The translations under genes were made by a program, and so were the position numbers. DNA of 6,194 bases, taken from the IMG/VR virus record IMGVR_UViG_3300045988_168943, positions 1 through 6,194 of that record. One strand, written 5' to 3'. The DNA is from a virus. Under the pieces are notes generated by a model. It did not search any database. It saw only the letters and a list, made by a program, of their open reading frames with translations, and was not told the DNA's origin. The number at the start of each line of letters is the position of its first letter. Within the stretch, counting starts at the first letter, position 1. Below are positions 1-6,194 of the stretch, one piece after another.

Positions 1-55
1 GCTAATACCCAATTTCAAGGTGCAGATTTCTTGAGTAATCATTTTGCTTCGCCCT
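1..55. repeat. Terminal direct repeat, copy 1 (identical to 6140..6194); an assembly overlap from a circular genome
   Basis: Compared by eye: gctaatacccaatttcaaggtgcagatttcttgagtaatcattttgcttcgccct occurs at both window ends. The reading frame is preserved across the junction (6140 and 1 are both first codon positions of the capsid ORF). Confidence 0.95.
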
Positions 56-1005
56 CTTTTCCGTCTTATTCTGATACTGATGTGGCGTCCTTTACTCCTA
101 CTACTCACCAAATTTCAGGCTTTCAGGCTGATGTTGCTACTGATGCTATCAATAAGAAGACCTTGCGTCTGACTGTCTCTAATCTTCGTAGTGCCTTTGC
201 GCTTGATAAGCTTTATCGTCTTATGGCTCAGGCTTCGGATGGTGATTATAAGTCACAGATTAAGGCTAGATATGGCTTTGATGCTTACGCTCCCCAGATG
301 CGTTGTCAGTTTGTTGGTTCTGCTAGTAGCGTGATTCAGGTTAACCCGATTACATCTACTGCTGATACTCTCACGACTTCGGATAGTGCCTTTCAGGGAA
401 CCCCCGTTGGTCGTATTTACGGAAATGGTGTTGCACAAGGCTCTGATACGTTTGAGTTTGATACCAAAGAACACGGTATCCTGATGGGTATTTGTTCTTT
501 TGTGCCTGATGTTGATTACAGTTCGTATGGTGTTAACATCTTTAACAAGAAGCTTTCATCCTCTGAGTATTTTCAACCAGAGTTTGATAATCTTGGAAAG
601 CAGCCTCTTGACGCTACTGCTCTGTATCTTGCCAAAGTCCCTGGTTCAGGTGGTATTAAATCCCCTGCCGTTCTTGGTTGGATTCCTCGATATGCTGAGT
701 ATAAGACACATATAGATGAGGTTCACGGTCAGTTGAATGGTAACATCTACCGTTCAGCTAGTGGTGAGCCTACTCTTTCTAGTTGGACTGCTCCTCGTCT
801 CGCTGGCTTTGAGGACGATATGGCTTCTTATTGGTGTAAGGATGGTCTTTCAAAGAACTTCTTTTATATCAATCCTGCTTTGTATAATAGCATCTTTGTT
901 AATCAGTATGAGGGATTTCAGACTCAAGACCAGTTCATTTGTGAAGTTAGTAATAATGTTCAAGCCGTTTTGCCTATGTCGGTTAGCGGTGAGCCTTTAA
1001 TTTAG
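1..1005 (+). CDS. VP1: Major capsid protein VP1 (phiX174 gpF homologue), C-terminal 334 codons; continues from 5408..6139
   Basis: The frame is open from base 1 to TAG at 1003-1005. The TTG start at 31 in the ORF track is an artefact of window linearisation. Bases 1-55 duplicate 6140-6194 in the same frame as the ATG at 5408. The joined protein is 578 aa and carries microvirus capsid hallmarks (see the 5408..6194 entry). Confidence 0.93.
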   Translation, partial: ANTQFQGADFLSNHFASPSFPSYSDTDVASFTPTTHQISGFQADVATDAINKKTLRLTVSNLRSAFALDKLYRLMAQASDGDYKSQIKARYGFDAYAPQMRCQFVGSASSVIQVNPITSTADTLTTSDSAFQGTPVGRIYGNGVAQGSDTFEFDTKEHGILMGICSFVPDVDYSSYGVNIFNKKLSSSEYFQPEFDNLGKQPLDATALYLAKVPGSGGIKSPAVLGWIPRYAEYKTHIDEVHGQLNGNIYRSASGEPTLSSWTAPRLAGFEDDMASYWCKDGLSKNFFYINPALYNSIFVNQYEGFQTQDQFICEVSNNVQAVLPMSVSGEPLI

Positions 1006-1012
1006 TTTGTTT

Positions 1013-1432
1013 ATGAATTATAGTAGTTATTTTCAGTATTGTTATACTGCTGTTCCTTCACCTTCTTACGAGGTTCATCCTGAGAAAGTGATTAATCAAG
1101 ATGAAATGGATGCTTTGTGCCCTCTTGACTCTACTACTGGCAAGCGTTGTGAGCCCCTTGTTCGTGCTCTTGACCCATCTTGTAGTGATTCTGAGCGTCA
1201 GTCGCTTTTAGCTTCTTTGCAGCTTGTTAAGACTTCTTCAGGTTACGAGTCCTTGAGTGATGATGTTAAGTTGCAGATTTGTAAGTTGCGTTCTTTACAG
1301 ACTCCTAGCGAGTTAAAGGAGTTTGCTGGTTATGTTAATCAGATTTCTGATAGTCTCGATGTTGAGACTCTTGAGACTCCTGAGACTCCTGAGACTCCTG
1401 AGACTCCTCAGACACCTAGTGATAATGTTTAA
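1013..1432 (+). CDS. Hypothetical acidic protein (139 aa) with a C-terminal ETP tandem repeat; possible scaffolding-type protein
   Basis: ATG at 1013 lies 7 nt after the VP1 stop (the track begins at an upstream TTG, 1007). Hand count gives about 23 D/E against about 10 K/R. The C-terminus is VETLETPETPETPETPQTPSDNV. I recognise no family. Its position between VP1 and VP2, its size and its acidity fit an internal scaffolding analogue, but that is inference. Confidence 0.7.
   Translation: MNYSSYFQYCYTAVPSPSYEVHPEKVINQDEMDALCPLDSTTGKRCEPLVRALDPSCSDSERQSLLASLQLVKTSSGYESLSDDVKLQICKLRSLQTPSELKEFAGYVNQISDSLDVETLETPETPETPETPQTPSDNV
1364..1417 (+). repeat. 9-bp tandem repeat: gagactcct x4 perfect, flanked by degenerate units gagactctt and cagacacct
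   Basis: Read directly: 1364-1372 gagactctt; 1373-1408 four perfect gagactcct units; 1409-1417 cagacacct. In frame it encodes ETL-(ETP)4-QTP. Confidence 0.95.
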
Positions 1433-1441
1433 TATCTATTT

Positions 1442-1463
1442 GCCCCCTACAGAAGTAGGGGGC
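1442..1463 (+). other. Perfect 9-bp GC-rich hairpin (GCCCCCTAC-AGAA-GTAGGGGGC) between the acidic ORF and VP2; possible attenuator or terminator, or an ssDNA structural element
   Basis: Arms 1442-1450 and 1455-1463 are exact reverse complements with a 4-nt loop. A T6 run follows only after a 7-nt spacer (ttaaaccTTTTTT), so it is not a textbook intrinsic terminator. It shares the CCCCCTA/TAGGGGG motif with the 2795-2882 hairpins. Confidence 0.6.
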
Positions 1464-1485
1464 TTAAACCTTTTTTATCAATTAT

Positions 1486-2508
1486 ATGGGTTCTTTTCTT
1501 TCAACTTTAAGTGGTATTGCTTCTGCCGTGTCTCCTATTCTCGGTGCAGGTGCTTCTTTGCTTGGTTCACATAAGGCGCAAAAAGCTAGTTATGAAGCTA
1601 TTGACCGCCAAAATAGCTTTAACGAGTATATGTACAACAAGTATAAGAATCCCGTTAATGCTAGTAAGTTGTTGCTGCAAGCAGGTATAAATCCTGCATT
1701 TGCCTATGGCAATATAGCTGGCAATATGGGTGCTACTCCCGAGCAAAACGCCCCTGCAGATACGTCTGCTACTCGTGACGCTATACCTAATGCCGTTAAT
1801 GCTTTTGCCCAGATGCAGCAATCTAACTTGGTTCGTTCGCAGGTCACACGTCAGGAGATTGATAATAATTATGCAGCTGCCGAAAAGGCTGCTCAGATTG
1901 CCAAGATGGTGCAAGAGACTACAGGTCTCAAGTATGATAACTATCTCAAAAAGTCCTCTCAGGATATGCAGTTGAATATCCTGAAGCAGACCGAACAACA
2001 GATGTACACCAAGACCTATGCAGATAACTTGCTTGCCCAAGGTTCTGCGTGGGAATTGGCTTCAAAGGCAATGTATGCTCGTATCGGTCAACCTTTGCAG
2101 TTCCAAAAGGATAGATTAGAGATTGCTTATACTGCTGCTCAGATAGCTTACCAACAAAAGGTTAATAAGTGGTATGATAAGATGAGTAAAGCGCAAATGG
2201 ATTCGCTTTATACGAATGCTGCTGCTGCCATTGTTGGTGCTCGTGCTTCCGCTCAGAATGCTGCTACAAATGCCAAAGTAGGTGCTTCACAAGCTTACAA
2301 CTTAGATACAGAGTCTTTTGTTAAAGGTCAACAGAATTTGCGTGATTCTCGTTTGTTTAACGTCACTCTCAAGTCTCTTCGTTTAGGTGTTCAGGAGAAT
2401 CAAATGAAGTTTGATTATTGGCATAATTCAGGTGTATTTAATGACTTTATGTGGCATTCAGGTAATATGTTAGAGCATATTAATCCTATTAAGTTTGGTT
2501 TTAAGTAA
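1486..2508 (+). CDS. VP2: Minor capsid / DNA pilot protein (VP2, phiX174 gpH-like), 340 aa
   Basis: The N-terminus is small-residue-rich and hydrophobic (MGSFLSTLSGIASAVSPILGAGASLLG). It is followed by ...LLLQAGINPAFAY and a long Q/A/K-rich, predicted helical region. This matches microvirus VP2/pilot proteins as I recall them, and the position downstream of VP1 is typical. Confidence 0.85.
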   Translation: MGSFLSTLSGIASAVSPILGAGASLLGSHKAQKASYEAIDRQNSFNEYMYNKYKNPVNASKLLLQAGINPAFAYGNIAGNMGATPEQNAPADTSATRDAIPNAVNAFAQMQQSNLVRSQVTRQEIDNNYAAAEKAAQIAKMVQETTGLKYDNYLKKSSQDMQLNILKQTEQQMYTKTYADNLLAQGSAWELASKAMYARIGQPLQFQKDRLEIAYTAAQIAYQQKVNKWYDKMSKAQMDSLYTNAAAAIVGARASAQNAATNAKVGASQAYNLDTESFVKGQQNLRDSRLFNVTLKSLRLGVQENQMKFDYWHNSGVFNDFMWHSGNMLEHINPIKFGFK

Positions 2509-2537
2509 TATTTTTATTTTTTTTCCGTTATCATTTT

Positions 2538-2642
2538 ATGAGACACGGTTTATTATATTATTTAGTTTGTGCGATATTGATTATCTTTATCGTTATGTTT
2601 GTTTTATGTCTTTTAAGCTCATTTATTGCGGTTTACTTCTAG
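2538..2642 (+). CDS. Candidate 34-aa single-pass membrane peptide (MRHGLLYYLVCAILIIFIVMFVLCLLSSFIAVYF)
   Basis: Hand-translated; too short for the ORF track. It starts 29 nt after the VP2 stop and ends 6 nt before the intrinsic terminator, so it would be the last cistron of the transcript. Caveat: the T-rich strand generates hydrophobic ORFs by chance. Confidence 0.35.
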   Translation: MRHGLLYYLVCAILIIFIVMFVLCLLSSFIAVYF

Positions 2643-2648
2643 TTAATT

Positions 2649-2678
2649 AGGCAGTCATTTATATGGCTGCCTTTTTTT
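2649..2678 (+). terminator. Rho-independent terminator ending the + strand gene block
   Basis: AGGCAGTCA (2649-2657) pairs with TGGCTGCCT (2664-2672): a 9-bp stem with one G-U wobble and loop TTTATA. The stem runs straight into a T7 tract (2672-2678). Confidence 0.8.
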
Positions 2679-2682
2679 GCTT

Positions 2683-2977
2683 CGTGTCGGAGATGCCGTA
2701 GGCAGACACGCTTATTATCTCAAAGTCTTGCGCTAGCCCCTCCTATACCTATGAAAAACACTAGCCTTTGCTTCTTTGGGCAATGCCAAAGAAGTAGGGG
2801 TTGAGGGGGTGAAACCCCCTAACATTCGCCGTCGGCGTCCGACCTCCGAGGGGTTGTAGGGGGCGCGGAGTGGCGCCCCCTAATCGCTAGTTATCAACTT
2901 TCGGTTTTCACGAAGTGCGATTGCCCCCGCCAATCGCCAACCTGCCCTTGTCCTTTAAAGGAAAACCGACACACACG
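2683..2977. other. GC-rich, hairpin-dense non-coding island; candidate complementary-strand origin or other structured DNA/RNA element
   Basis: The track shows no ORF of 60 aa or more on either strand. My hand count over 2781-2940 gives about 59% G+C, against roughly 40% elsewhere. Stems read from the sequence: 2683-2688/2705-2710 with inner 2694-2697/2701-2704; 2771-2779/2786-2794 (9 bp perfect); 2805-2809/2815-2819; 2831-2835/2839-2843; 2857-2866/2873-2882 (10 bp, GC-rich); 2917-2923/2931-2937 (7 bp), enclosed by the long-range pair 2901-2909/2961-2969 (9 bp perfect). Confidence 0.6.
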
Positions 2978-3037
2978 TAAATAATGCTATCTCCACATAG
3001 CATTTCACGTGAAACATTTTAAAAGTAAACTAATATT

Positions 3038-3065
3038 TGTTAACATAACGTCCCTTATGTTAGAA
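3038..3065. promoter_or_regulatory. dif-like 28-bp site (11-nt arm, 6-nt spacer, 11-nt arm); candidate XerC/XerD-dependent attP
   Basis: The site reads TGTTAACATAA CGTCCC TTATGTTAGAA. The inner 8 nt of the arms form a perfect inverted repeat. Compared with E. coli dif (GGTGCGCATAA TGTATA TTATGTTAAAT), the right arm matches 9/11 and the left arm 7/11, including the spacer-proximal CATAA. Confidence 0.55.
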
Positions 3066-3082
3066 GTATGGTAGTACTTCAT

Positions 3083-3090
3083 TATCTTTG
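3083..3090 (+). promoter_or_regulatory. Candidate Bacteroidota -7 promoter element (TAnnTTTG)
   Basis: TATCTTTG matches the Bacteroides -7 consensus TAnnTTTG and lies 66 nt upstream of the first gene after the non-coding region (ATG 3156). I found no convincing -33 TTTG at the expected spacing. A sigma70-like TATAAT at 3121-3126 is an alternative. Confidence 0.3.
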
Positions 3091-3155
3091 CACTCGTTTT
3101 CAGTTACTTATTGTTTCTGATATAATTTATTGTTTAATTTTAATGTAAAAAAGAT

Positions 3156-3557
3156 ATGAGATTGTTATTGGTCAGAGATTCGTTTGATTCTTGTTCTACA
3201 TTGGGTGAGTTATTTATCGATGATGTCCCGTTCTGTAATACTCTAGAGCCTGCTATAGGTAAAAAGGTTAAATACGGCAAAGGTTGTTGTATTGCTCCTG
3301 GCACTTATTCTATTGATTTTCATTATTCTCCAAAGTTTGGAAAATACATGCTTACTTTGTGTGGTGTCTCTGGTCGTTCTGGAATTCTCATTCATTCTGG
3401 TAATACCCATAAAGATACTAGCGGTTGCATTCTTGTTGGTAAGCGTGGTGGTGTTCTTCCTTTGGCTTACTCTACTAGCACTTTAGGCTCACTGTTTGAC
3501 CGTTGCTTGTCTGTTCTAGGTAAAGAGTCAATTACTATTTCGATTACAAATAAATAA
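3156..3557 (+). CDS. DUF5675-like protein (133 aa) with a His...Ser-Gly-Cys motif; putative peptidoglycan-acting enzyme (lysis or entry)
   Basis: Clean ORF in an A-rich start context. STLGELFIDDVPFCNTLEP ... IAPGTYSIDFHYSPKFG ... GILIHSGNTHKDTSGCILVG matches my memory of the DUF5675 family found in Bacteroidota and their phages. The H-x-G-N ... S-G-C-I motif resembles the YkuD (L,D-transpeptidase fold) His/Cys active site, although the His-Cys spacing here is shorter. There is no signal peptide. Confidence 0.8.
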   Translation: MRLLLVRDSFDSCSTLGELFIDDVPFCNTLEPAIGKKVKYGKGCCIAPGTYSIDFHYSPKFGKYMLTLCGVSGRSGILIHSGNTHKDTSGCILVGKRGGVLPLAYSTSTLGSLFDRCLSVLGKESITISITNK

Positions 3558-3560
3558 GTT

Positions 3561-3656
3561 ATGTTTAAAAAAGAAGAAGTTTTTAAAGTTATTATTAAGG
3601 CAGTTCTTTACGCTATTACTGCGTTGGCTGCTCAACTGGGTTATACATCGTTATAA
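3561..3656 (+). CDS. Candidate 31-aa membrane or amphipathic peptide (MFKKEEVFKVIIKAVLYAITALAAQLGYTSL)
   Basis: Hand-translated; too short for the track. ATG lies 3 nt after the upstream stop, and its own stop is 11 nt before the VP4 ATG, so it fills the gap exactly. It has a charged N-terminus followed by a roughly 20-residue hydrophobic segment. Confidence 0.45.
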   Translation: MFKKEEVFKVIIKAVLYAITALAAQLGYTSL

Positions 3657-3667
3657 ATTTTGGGAAT

Positions 3668-5392
3668 ATGAGAGATAGTATTAAGGATTATGTTAAGCGT
3701 TTTAGGCAGAACGTTACACCTGCTATGCGTTGCTACCACCCATTGCGCATTTATAATGCTGCAAGAGGTGTATTTGAGTGGCATAATTGTGGTAAGTGTC
3801 CTTATTGTCTTAAGATGCGTTCTGACGAATTGACGCAAAGATGCTACAAGGAGTCTGAACAACATCCCTATGCTATCTTTTTTACTCTCACTTATGATAA
3901 TGAGCATATTCCCTATTTAGAGCGTGTTGGTAAATGGTGGATACTTCGTAACCGCAGAGAAGTAGTTGATGGTGAAAGTACTGTTATTATTCACGATTCT
4001 GAGGTACAAGGTGTACACCCTATAGAGTCTAATGAATGCCCCATTGATATCGATTGTTTCGGTGTCCTTTGGAAGCAGGACATTATTAATTTCAAGAAAC
4101 GTCTGTTTATAAATCTCAAAAGATATGTTCAGCGCAATAAAAAATATTATACAAGTTTATTCGTTAATGGTAAGCTTAAAGAAGAGCCGCTTTTCCGAAT
4201 CTTCATTAATGGCGAATATGGACCAACTACCCTGCGTCCACATTACCACGGCATTTTGTGGTGTGATGAAAAGTGTTTGGCAAACGATTTTCTTGATTCC
4301 TACAAGAATAGCGCAAAATCTGCCGATAGAGACTATTGGCACGGTCTTATATACGAAAGTTGGCAGATGTGTAGTCCGGATAGATGCGACTCACAACACG
4401 TCACAAAGGCTGCTCCCTCGTACGTTGCAAGCTATGTATGTAGCACATATAGTTTGCCTGATGTTCTTCAGGCTAAACCCTTCCGTCCAAAGGTCTTGGC
4501 AAGTAAAAACCCTATTATTGGTTCTTACAAAGTTAGCCCAGATGTGCTTACGGATGCACTCTTTAATGGAACTATCCTTTATCCTCAATGGAATGATGAC
4601 GAAAAGTCCTTTACCGAGTACCCTTTACCCTACACGTATCTCCTTCGATACTTCCCTAAGTGCCAAGCATATGGCGTTTCGGATATTAATGATAAATTAT
4701 CAATATTTGCGAAGTATGAAGCAGGAAGGTATGTAAAAAGACCAATTGTTAGACGTGGTTTTTTCTACCAAAAGAAACAAGACTTGGTTTGTTATGATTT
4801 CAATCAGGATTATGATGATACCCCTTACAACGATTATTATCGCTATCAAAATAGCCGATTTCATCGTATGTTGAAGTATTGGTGTTCTCGCTCCTTCGAT
4901 GTTCCTGAACGTGATAATTTAGGTATTCTTACAGGTCGTTTTGTGTCTCGTAGGTTGTCTCCTCGTCAATATATTGAGTGTCTTGATAGATTATATAGTA
5001 ATCTTGAGTTATACAAGTTGTCTAAGTTTTATGCCGAGCAGGAAGATTTGTTAGATGGCTCTCGTAATGCGTATAATGAGTATCTATTTACTCAACGCTA
5101 TCAGGCTAAAATTTATCTTCTCACTTATTACCCTGAGTTTGTTTTCTCTCTTCCTAGAGTGCTTACTCCTGCCGTTGATAGGTTTCAACTTAACAGACAG
5201 TTAAATAATTTTGGTCTTGTTATCTCAGATATTTACATTGGTCTTGAGTTGTCTCCTGCTGTTTTGGATTTCTTATATAATAACACTATTAATATGAATT
5301 TCCGTGTTAATACTACCCAGAAGTGTATTGACCGTAACAAGTCTAAAAAGTATAAAGAGTTTTATGCCCGACAAAAGGGTATTATTTATTAA
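3668..5392 (+). CDS. VP4: Rolling-circle replication initiation protein (VP4, phiX174 gpA homologue; HUH endonuclease), 574 aa
   Basis: Motif 1 is FFTLTYD. The HUH motif is RPHYHGILW (HYH at 4241-4249). The two-tyrosine motif 3 is SYVASYV (Y252 at 4421-4423 and Y256), comparable to phiX174 gpA YVAKYV. An N-terminal cysteine cluster, CGKCPYC, is typical of microvirus Rep proteins. The true start could instead be ATG 3725 (MRCYHPLRIYN...), which resembles the usual VP4 N-terminus. Confidence 0.93.
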   Translation: MRDSIKDYVKRFRQNVTPAMRCYHPLRIYNAARGVFEWHNCGKCPYCLKMRSDELTQRCYKESEQHPYAIFFTLTYDNEHIPYLERVGKWWILRNRREVVDGESTVIIHDSEVQGVHPIESNECPIDIDCFGVLWKQDIINFKKRLFINLKRYVQRNKKYYTSLFVNGKLKEEPLFRIFINGEYGPTTLRPHYHGILWCDEKCLANDFLDSYKNSAKSADRDYWHGLIYESWQMCSPDRCDSQHVTKAAPSYVASYVCSTYSLPDVLQAKPFRPKVLASKNPIIGSYKVSPDVLTDALFNGTILYPQWNDDEKSFTEYPLPYTYLLRYFPKCQAYGVSDINDKLSIFAKYEAGRYVKRPIVRRGFFYQKKQDLVCYDFNQDYDDTPYNDYYRYQNSRFHRMLKYWCSRSFDVPERDNLGILTGRFVSRRLSPRQYIECLDRLYSNLELYKLSKFYAEQEDLLDGSRNAYNEYLFTQRYQAKIYLLTYYPEFVFSLPRVLTPAVDRFQLNRQLNNFGLVISDIYIGLELSPAVLDFLYNNTINMNFRVNTTQKCIDRNKSKKYKEFYARQKGIIY

Positions 5393-5407
5393 TTAATATA
5401 TTTTATT

Positions 5408-6194
5408 ATGGTTAAGTCAGTTTTACAAAAACCGCTTTCGATTTCAAACGTATCTCGTAATGCGTTTGATGTAGGCTATAGTAACAAGTTTACTAGCAGT
5501 CTTGGTATGTTGTTGCCGTGTTTCGTTCGTGAGTGTAACCCTGATGAGCACTACCGCATTAATGCCCGTATGTTCACTCGTACAATGCCTATGAACTCGG
5601 CTGCGTTCATTCAGTGTACACAACATATTGAGTTCTTTTTTGTGCCTTATCGTCTCTTGTGGCGAGACTTCCCTCAGTTTGTGACGGGTACCAAGTTCCC
5701 TACTTCTCTGTATGATTCTAAGGTTTCTTCTGATTCTCCAAAGTTCGATTTGGCTAAGATTTATAACGCTTTCAAAGATAAGTTATCTGCTTCTAACCCT
5801 ACCCCTGCTGGTGGTCTTGGTACAGATTTGCTTGGTTATCCTAAGATACAGAATGCAATGCGTCTGCTTGATTTGCTCGGTTATGGTTGTTATTATACTC
5901 CAGAATCTATGGATTTCGCTCCTGCAGCTATGAATCCTTTTCGCTTGCTTGCTTATCAGAAGATTTGCGCCGATTTCTACCGTGTTGCGAATTGGGAAGA
6001 CAACCGTGTTAAGTCTTGGAATATTGATGGTCTTAATATAGACCTTACTTCTTCGTGGAATGCTGTAACGTTGCAGAATTTCTTGGATAATTATCTCGCA
6101 CTCAATTATCGTCCTTGGAAAAAAGATTTGTTTACCATTGCTAATACCCAATTTCAAGGTGCAGATTTCTTGAGTAATCATTTTGCTTCGCCCT
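5408..6194 (+). CDS. VP1: Major capsid protein VP1 (gpF homologue), N-terminal part; runs off the window end and continues at 1..1005
   Basis: I translated it by hand from ATG 5408 and found no stop through 6194. The protein begins MVKSVLQKPLSISNVSRNAFDVGYSNKFTSSLGMLLPCFVRECNPDEHYRINARMFTRTMPMNSAAFIQCTQHIEFFFVPYRLLW and later contains LNYRPWKKDLFT. These are characteristic microvirus capsid blocks (FTRT..P...AAF....FFFVPYRLLW, as in Alpavirinae-like VP1). The ORF track missed it because it has no stop inside the window. Confidence 0.93.
   Translation, partial: MVKSVLQKPLSISNVSRNAFDVGYSNKFTSSLGMLLPCFVRECNPDEHYRINARMFTRTMPMNSAAFIQCTQHIEFFFVPYRLLWRDFPQFVTGTKFPTSLYDSKVSSDSPKFDLAKIYNAFKDKLSASNPTPAGGLGTDLLGYPKIQNAMRLLDLLGYGCYYTPESMDFAPAAMNPFRLLAYQKICADFYRVANWEDNRVKSWNIDGLNIDLTSSWNAVTLQNFLDNYLALNYRPWKKDLFTIANTQFQGADFLSNHFASP
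6140..6194. repeat. Terminal direct repeat, copy 2 (identical to 1..55)
   Basis: Exact 55-nt identity with the window start, giving a circular unit length of 6139 nt. Confidence 0.95.

Follow-up and report, generated by a model that had tools for sequence, protein, structure and literature searches.

Why does a gut microvirus keep, in the only large non-coding stretch of its genome, a dense and G+C-rich array of hairpins? The question is raised by positions 2683-2977 (the island) of the IMG/VR virus record IMGVR_UViG_3300045988_168943, of which positions 1 to 6,194 were analysed as one strand, 5' to 3' (the window, 6,194 nt). Comparison with relatives showed that the island is a conserved, strand-specific and modular element, in which pairing is maintained by compensatory change and the loops follow DNA rules, and that this element is common to approximately 130 gut microvirus genomes and prophages. 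We hold with moderate confidence that it is a cis-acting origin, folded from the single-stranded DNA (ssDNA) of the + strand, for synthesis of the complementary strand; this role, like the identity of the host enzyme that would read it, is one that we infer. The parts of the island are as follows.

2683-2710, + strand: H0, a two-tier hairpin with outer stem 2683-2688/2705-2710 and a 5-nt bulge, GGAGA
2694-2697/2701-2704, + strand: inner stem of H0, with triloop GTA closed by C:G
2730-2737, + strand: mini-hairpin GCGCTAGC, of the form S-CG-NN-AG-S'
2745-2766, + strand: 22-nt tract ATACCTATGAAAAACACTAGCC, apparently single-stranded, its columns invariant among 38 sequences
2771-2794 (2771-2779/2786-2794), + strand: H1, a 9-bp stem CTTCTTTGG/CCAAAGAAG with invariant loop GCAATG
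2804-2820, + strand: variable hairpin AGGGGGT-GAA-ACCCCCT, lineage-specific and replaced by other hairpins in aligned relatives
2831-2843, + strand: variable hairpin GTCGG-CGT-CCGAC, common to relatives L002, L015, L027, L028 and L038
2851-2887, + strand: H2 module, with 5' flank GGGTTG, hairpin and 3' flank ATCGC, both flanks conserved
2857-2882 (2857-2866/2873-2882), + strand: 10-bp hairpin of H2, TAGGGGGCGC-GGAGTG-GCGCCCCCTA
2888-2896, + strand: iteron-like unit TAGTTATCA, in single copy
2901-2973, + strand: 3' module, with stems P1-P3, invariant CCCTTGTCC and a GACAC box
2901-2909/2961-2969, + strand: P1, 9 bp, enclosing the hairpin at 2917-2937
2910-2916, + strand: P2, mini-hairpin AC-GAA-GT
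2917-2923/2931-2937, + strand: P3, with loop CCCCCGC
2945-2953, + strand: invariant CCCTTGTCC
2968-2972, + strand: GACAC box

The initial annotation had described this locus, from its letters alone, as a G+C-rich island of stable stems in a region without an open reading frame (ORF) of 60 aa or more, and this description was borne out. The ORF listing contains none of at least 60 aa in 2509-3155, the nearest being those at 2495-2650 (+ strand, 51 aa) and 3140-3304 (- strand, 54 aa), and every stem that had been named is a perfect inverted repeat. In 150-nt windows the G+C content is 0.53-0.59 over 2701-3000, with a peak of 0.59 in 2776-2925, as compared to mostly 0.30-0.48 elsewhere and 0.22-0.31 in the flanks of the island, so that 2683-2977 represents the highest G+C and most structured stretch of the genome. 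Of all GGGGG/CCCCC runs in the window, eight in number, five do lie in the island, within 2805-2928; the suggestion that these TAGGGGG/CCCCCTA runs permit functional alternative folds found no support when relatives were compared. The same CCCCCTA/TAGGGGG arms occur in a hairpin, GCCCCCTAC-AGAA-GTAGGGGGC followed by a T-run, at 1441-1464 between a 141-aa ORF and the VP2 gene, which holds two of the three runs outside the island.

Folding of the + strand, which the initial annotation had proposed as a check, gave structures beyond chance both as RNA (-120.3 kcal/mol, z = -5.5, with none of 200 shuffles as good) and as DNA (-56.9 kcal/mol, z = -4.1), while the RNA fold of the - strand was weaker (z = -2.4). 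When the whole genome was tiled with DNA parameters, the lowest z values fell in island windows (-4.4 and -5.7), the next-lowest being -3.9 at 1181-1475. Two further pairings were discarded: an extended 18-bp, G·U-rich form of H1 (2771-2794) from RNA folding, which needs five G·T pairs and is missing in most relatives, and a pairing of CCCCTCC (2737-2743) with GAGGGG (2849-2854), which is not kept in L038.

When 50,697 phage records were searched by blastn with positions 2500-3160, the island was recovered from four microviruses of the pig gut. Three of these have it annotated after VP2, the DNA pilot protein; the fourth has it upstream of Rep, with the C-terminus of VP2 recognisable by sequence just before it. 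A pattern derived from the shared 5' part (ATGAAAAACACTAGC, 8-22 nt, then GGGCAATGCC) occurs in 35 IMG/VR contigs, nearly all of 5-8 kb, in 91 metagenome contigs, labelled mostly as human gut, and in one contig, with microvirus gene order, among 185,579 reference genomes (32 million contigs); the exact core is present in 126 contigs of IMG/VR and the metagenomes, and also in the four pig-gut genomes. The shorter patterns ATGAAAAACACTAGC alone and TTGGGCAATGCCAA alone returned mostly chance matches in large phages and gained one true member, L155. The element lies on the coding, packaged strand in all carriers in which VP1 (103 of 103) or Rep (89 of 89) was located, and its position is constant: VP2 and a terminator precede it, and the Rep promoter follows. 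Carriers share with the window a median amino-acid identity of 25% in Rep and 34% in VP1, and, three close relatives aside, nucleotide-level alignment to the window is confined to 2700-2800 and 3000-3100, whereas the 22-nt tract and the H1 loop are identical across carriers. Identity of the core in phages whose proteins are so little alike fits a site that is read by a conserved host factor.

A homologous module also occurs in a cultured phage. In the isolated Bacteroides fragilis phage phiHBP1 (L281, PV598014), five mini-hairpin motifs lie in a similar G+C-rich island between VP2 and Rep, and the 3' module matches a covariance model of the type-C 3' module at full length (33.2 bits, rough E = 1.6e-5). 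As phiHBP1 yielded no lysogens (PMC13064476), the element does not appear to be tied to lysogeny.

Among relatives the order of the parts is kept while hairpins are swapped, added or dropped. H0 recurs in the same architecture with many stems (CGTGTC, CGTGAC, CGGCAG, CGGTCG, CGGGGA and others) and GTA or GAA triloops, another lineage has a second architecture, GTTTCC-N6-GGAAAC, at this position, and compensated variants are many in both. In 37 of 39 loci the mini-hairpin precedes ATGAAAAAC by 18-21 nt, and its outer pair covaries between G:C (13) and C:G (24). H1 is represented by 35 distinct stem sequences of 9-12 bp with a core that is all Watson-Crick, and H2, found in 103 of 135 instances with stems of 7-10 bp between conserved flanks (RGGTTA and ATCGCC), shows no G·T among the 130 pairs of its distinct hairpins. 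Long forms of the element contain approximately 200-250 extra nt made of long hairpins, and the span from ATGAAAAAC to GACAC varies from 219 to 499 nt (median 436). In L005 (6061-6136) and L030 (6042-6116) the covariance model places the 3' module (hairpin, CCCTTGTT, GTGACAC) ahead of the 5' core rather than behind it, so that the modules behave as independent cassettes. The invariant tract 2745-2766, in which ascertainment applies to ATGAAAAACACTAGC alone, is a candidate recognition or priming site.

Alignment of relatives, the second check that had been proposed, demonstrated that the stems are under constraint. In 25 distinct sequences of the 3' module 94.7% of cells are paired, as compared to 81% in column shuffles and 28-46% in slid registers, and eight of its 18 pairs have changed on both sides. 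RNAalifold independently recovered the same three helices, comprising 16 pairs of which seven are compensatory, none one-sided and none broken, and in the hairpin of the other form of 3' module, type C, five of eight pairs covary (48 sequences). The initial annotation had named the absence of the island, or of compensatory substitutions, from relatives as grounds for giving up a function, and the island survives this test because it is conserved in relatives with compensatory changes in its stems. The changes go from Watson-Crick to Watson-Crick, with G·T pairs nearly nil over more than 1000 pair-cells of the well-defined helices. In RNA families G·U pairs would be expected to make up an appreciable fraction; helices almost devoid of G·T, as found here, are predicted for DNA hairpins and uncommon in RNA.

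The loops lead in the same direction. They are mostly C-GNA-G and C-GNNA-G mini-hairpins, and the third loop base of the mini-hairpin is a pyrimidine in 33 of 37 loci, thereby violating the GNRA rule of RNA and fitting the DNA rule GCGNAGC/GCGNNAGC. At one site a GNA triloop and a GNNA tetraloop interchange (CGC-GAA-GCG versus CGC-GAAA-GCG). Counted over 94 unique islands, the + strand has 295 occurrences of the motif and the - strand 45, as compared to 52.7 ± 7.1 in dinucleotide shuffles; this amounts to a 5.6-fold enrichment that is restricted to the + strand, which is the richer of the two in 89 of the 94 islands. DNA hairpins d(GCGNAGC) and d(GCGNNAGC) are extraordinarily stable, whereas r(GCGAAAGC) melts at 39 °C, and such mini-hairpins bind single-strand-binding protein poorly (Hirao review, PMC13037366).

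A working model for the complementary-strand origin may be outlined on this basis. The incoming + strand would be coated by the host single-strand-binding protein except at the island, where G+C-rich Watson-Crick hairpins with very stable C-GNA-G and C-GNNA-G loops would leave an uncoated patch. These hairpins would frame the unpaired 22-nt tract at 2745-2766, between mini-hairpin GCGCTAGC and H1, and the tract and the H1 loop would thereby be presented to a conserved host priming enzyme, be it a primase, RNA polymerase or a PriA-type primosome. The enzyme would lay down the primer for the complementary strand, and synthesis from this primer would yield the double-stranded replicative form.

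Several observations weigh against an origin of this kind. Since the core was demanded by the search pattern, its invariance is in part a matter of ascertainment, and recent horizontal spread of a cassette could also have caused it. The lack of G·U pairs is compatible with an RNA, some of the loops (GCAA, GTAA, GAAA) are good GNRA tetraloops of RNA, and read-through of the upstream terminator could transcribe the island. With DNA parameters the two strands fold alike (z = -4.4 for + and -4.5 for -), and because the folding energy is equal, strand specificity rests on the loop motifs and on context. The element measures 295 nt here and up to approximately 500 nt or more in relatives, as compared to some 110 nt for the G4 origin, and it is also much larger than the phiX174 primosome site, with much of it lineage-variable. 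The blastn search of the 50,697 phage records revealed no similarity to characterised origins. The plasmid origin ssoA has as its signature CS-6, TAGCGW in a loop; within the island this motif is confined to the - strand (2884-2889) and missing from the + strand, and its count in the window is at chance level.

The alternatives depend on the surroundings of the island. The window represents a complete circular microvirus genome of 6139 nt, with positions 1-55 recurring at 6140-6194, and all of its genes are on the + strand.

5408 to 1005, across the ends, + strand: VP1, matching Pfam Phage_F
1007-1432, + strand: 141-aa ORF
1486-2508, + strand: VP2
2649-2679, + strand: intrinsic terminator of the VP1-VP2 operon, a 10-bp stem (2649-2672) and T-run found by terminator scan
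3083-3090: Bacteroidetes-type TAnnTTTG motif TATCTTTG, Rep promoter candidate read from the sequence
3156-3557, + strand: DUF5675 protein (Pfam), 133 aa
3668-5392, + strand: Rep, with a Pfam REP_ORF2-G2P match below its threshold

The sole large non-coding stretch is 2509-3155. The terminator before the island and the candidate promoter near 3083 had both been predicted in the initial annotation and were located as listed; the terminator is context, outside the element proper. With its Phage_F capsid, Rep, gene order VP1-VP2-Rep, dif-like attachment site and a core duplicated in prophages, the phage is an Alpavirinae-like temperate microvirus. At the 3' end of the 141-aa ORF, GAGACTCCT is present in approximately five tandem copies (1362-1410), which encode (ETP)n. 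In L002 (2560-2860) and L003 (2060-2650) the VP2-Rep intergenic region also holds small genes, one or two in number, that run in the opposite direction and each have a hairpin terminator, which suggests that the region is a hotspot for accessory cargo.

Three functions had been offered for the island at the outset: of these, a DNA-level role on the + strand is now favoured, a structured non-coding RNA (ncRNA) was neither supported nor excluded, and captured host DNA was rejected. The ncRNA, which we consider possible though unlikely, would be transcribed either from a promoter that has escaped recognition or by polymerase reading through the VP2 terminator, and would act on the host or on the lysis/lysogeny decision of the phage, these being temperate microviruses in which no recognisable repressor gene is present. 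The better RNA fold of the + strand, the covariation, which is as an RNA would show, and the several GNRA loops are all in keeping with it. A pseudoknot is also conceivable, as GGGCAA of the H1 loop is complementary to an invariant TTGTCC; this pairing was not retained, for phiHBP1 would need a different register, and it offers no covariation to test because both sides are invariant. Against transcription as a discrete RNA, the element begins approximately 4-25 nt past the terminator T-run in every lineage (upstream flanks of 41 loci), which leaves too little space for a separate promoter, no conserved TAnnTTTG motif is found upstream of it in these 41 loci, and no terminator follows the island. 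The third check that had been proposed, a scan against Rfam (15), yielded no family at the gathering threshold in the window (scanned at E <= 10) or in 18 relatives; the best match in the window, Clostridiales-2, scored 24.6 bits against a threshold of 58.6 and fell on the lineage-variable hairpin 2804-2820. ARAGORN found no tRNA or tmRNA in the window. The near absence of G·U, the pyrimidine at the third position of the fixed tetraloop in 33 of 37 loci and the dominance of triloops closed by C:G likewise speak against an RNA, and modules that can be permuted are hard to fit with one globally folded molecule. A more specific version, in which the island is a large RNA that regulates immunity or lysis/lysogeny (in the manner of the P4 CI and P1 c4 RNAs) or serves as a decoy for a Bacteroidales factor, with the 22-nt tract and H1 loop as its contacts, is decidedly unlikely.

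A different assignment concerns the 3' module (2901-2973) and would not conflict with a complementary-strand origin in the 5' module. By this assignment, which we judge to be unlikely, the module would be the viral-strand origin, CCCTTGTCC...GACAC would be the nick or recognition site of Rep (a HUH endonuclease), made single-stranded by way of P1-P3, and the nearby TAGTTATCA repeats would be Rep-binding iterons. CTTGTY and GACAC are indeed the sole invariant letters across types A-D and phiHBP1, the 3' module acts as an independent cassette, and tandem iteron-like repeats flank it in relatives. TAGTTATCAT is present in two to three tandem copies in L010, L022, L025, L033 and L037, in some also upstream of H0; more generally, iteron-like repeats TAGTTATCAT and GCATACACTNATAGGACCTCA, two to three copies each, were noted in the islands and upstream flanks of these five and of L007 and L023. 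The succession of C-rich tract, CTTG, AT-rich spacer and ACAC loosely recalls the phiX174 origin GCTCCCCCAACTTGATATTAATAACAC, the sequence of which was verified in the database. The resemblance may nevertheless be due to chance, as it amounts to 12 identities of 30 in a hand alignment of low-complexity sequence (2945-2973 against phiX174 4290-4328, L282). CTTG is just a 4-mer, the island holds an invariant CTTGTC (2947-2952) rather than CTTGATA, and exact CTTGATA occurs on the + strand at 202 and, inside Rep, at 4982. Furthermore, the motif is fixed although Rep is only approximately 25% identical, which would need conservation like that of the geminivirus nonanucleotide, and phiX174-type origins need no hairpin.

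The island also lies close to a site of integration. The dif-like site that had been noticed in the initial annotation is real, and the region between it and the island contains a second conserved feature.

3001-3024, unstranded: conserved box CATTTCACGTGAAACATTTTAAAA with perfect 12-nt palindrome TTTCACGTGAAA (3003-3014), outside the island
3038-3065, unstranded: dif-like attP TGTTAACATAA-CGTCCC-TTATGTTAGAA, unique in the window within 3 mismatches on both strands
3044-3056: 13-bp crossover core CATAACGTCCCTT

The assignment of attP is based on L061, a 33.8-kb metagenome contig in which a phage closely related to that of the window is integrated, in the layout host, promoter, 133-aa gene, Rep, VP1, VP2, terminator, island, palindrome box, TGTTAACATAACGTCCCTT, host. 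CATAACGTCCCTT is duplicated at both junctions (approximately 880-896 and 7095-7107), which is direct evidence that the lineage integrates at a Xer-type site and which places attP of the window at 3038-3065, 65 nt beyond the end of the 3' module (2973). A second lineage has the same prophage layout with a different core, CATAATACCGGTTA. Bacteroidetes microvirus proviruses have been proposed to use XerC/D, some of them with a second dif-like site, and provirus BMV1 has a 13-bp duplicated attachment site (PMC3091885). The palindrome box, for which the roles of operator, accessory site for Xer or origin component may be considered, lies between the island and attP in most loci, 3001-3100 being conserved at the nucleotide level in approximately 23 loci; it is not found in phiHBP1.

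With the island inside the prophage and abutting attR, a role in Xer integration or excision may be envisaged, either as accessory sequences beside attP or as a folded single-strand substrate. The situation of an island some 65 nt from the dif-like site of an ssDNA phage resembles the folded attP of the CTX phage and plasmid cer/psi. Unlike the CTX attP, the window contains no second, inverted dif-like arm from which a forked hairpin could form, except for a chance-level match: a perfect 9-nt inverted repeat, CGTTATGTT/AACATAACG (2591-2599/3042-3050), makes part of attP complementary to a stretch that precedes the island, and pairing of this kind is what a CTX-like folded attP needs. Conserved, compensated hairpins are unexpected of double-stranded accessory sites, and phiHBP1 has an island with neither lysogens nor palindrome box. 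A Xer role is very unlikely.

That the island should be passenger host DNA, for instance captured by imprecise Xer excision as the initial annotation had also suggested, or a small protein-coding gene is extremely improbable: its composition is foreign to the genome, ATGAAAAAC opens an ORF and GenBank 'hypothetical proteins' lie over the island in MG945191 and phiHBP1, yet the single match among the reference genomes is on a microvirus-like contig, the host flank of the L061 prophage has no similarity to the island, and the ORF from the conserved ATG, which was rejected as a gene, varies from 17 to 117 aa and runs through H1 in differing frames among carriers. In phiHBP1 the feature in question is CNECMEOK_00004 (2326-2736, minus strand), which overlaps the end of VP2 and crosses the hairpin island; it is probably a spurious ORF, the frame being open because AT-rich stop codons are scarce there. 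The feature of MG945191 is similar.

In the gut of humans and animals, few phages are as abundant as the microviruses, and to our knowledge nothing is known of the conversion of ssDNA to duplex in those that infect Bacteroidales. The element is the most conserved nucleotide sequence that these phages share, above any gene. It may offer a way into the host priming machinery of Bacteroidota, and it is a ready nucleotide marker by which this group of phages, prophages included, can be recognised in metagenomes. The 'hypothetical protein' genes that have been laid over the island in GenBank call for caution in annotation. As phiHBP1, the first cultured Bacteroides microvirus, contains a homologous module, the choice between origin and RNA is open to ordinary genetics combined with an in vitro replication assay.

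No prior description of the element was found in the literature, and its nearest counterparts are to be sought among origins of complementary-strand synthesis. Like the origins of G4, St-1, phiK and alpha3 (Bullavirinae), it is a cluster of stable hairpins in an intergenic region on the + strand of a microvirus. GCGAAAGC of G4 and GCGTTAGC of St-1 and alpha3 lie where primase makes the complementary-strand primer (PMC13037366), and in the G4 record the primer is annotated at 3970-3997 over GGACGGCGAAAGCCGCCGTCC, in the F-G intergenic region. The GCGNNAGC mini-hairpin of these origins is shared here at the level of the motif only, although GCGTTAGC itself is present exactly in L025 and L038. 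As in G4, a G+C-rich perfect hairpin is followed by a conserved CCCTA flank (GCCGTCCCTACTG in G4, GCGCCCCCTAATCGC in the window). Unlike these origins, the element is three to five times longer and modular, its 22-nt tract is without a G4 counterpart, and its hosts belong to the Bacteroidota, in which priming at this element would take place; there is no homology either, the blastn search with 2500-3160 having given no Bullavirinae.

The phiX174 primosome site (n'/PriA, F-G intergenic region) is a hairpin signal on the + strand that is recognised by a host factor, as the island would be, albeit a single hairpin region of approximately 55 nt, without a mini-hairpin cluster and without sequence similarity to the island. 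The single-strand origins ssoA, ssoU, ssoT and ssoW of rolling-circle plasmids and the minus-strand origin of M13/f1 are comparable as non-coding, orientation-dependent structures of 150-300 nt; they work only when single-stranded, are read by host RNA polymerase or primase and are exchangeable cassettes. A folded mimic of a promoter of the Bacteroidetes TTTG/TAnnTTTG type was not recognised in the island. In the reekeekee- and roodoodoo-microviruses, conserved intergenic hairpins with compensatory substitutions lie next to Rep and have been tentatively linked to initiation of the negative strand (PMC9865509). Those consist of one or two hairpins of 13-64 nt in a different clade, whereas the element described here is multi-modular, extends over 300-500 nt or more and has invariant unpaired tracts and mini-hairpin loops. 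On these comparisons, the element is a member of none of the described groups, and would work in the manner of both the G4/St-1/alpha3 origins and the single-strand origins of plasmids.

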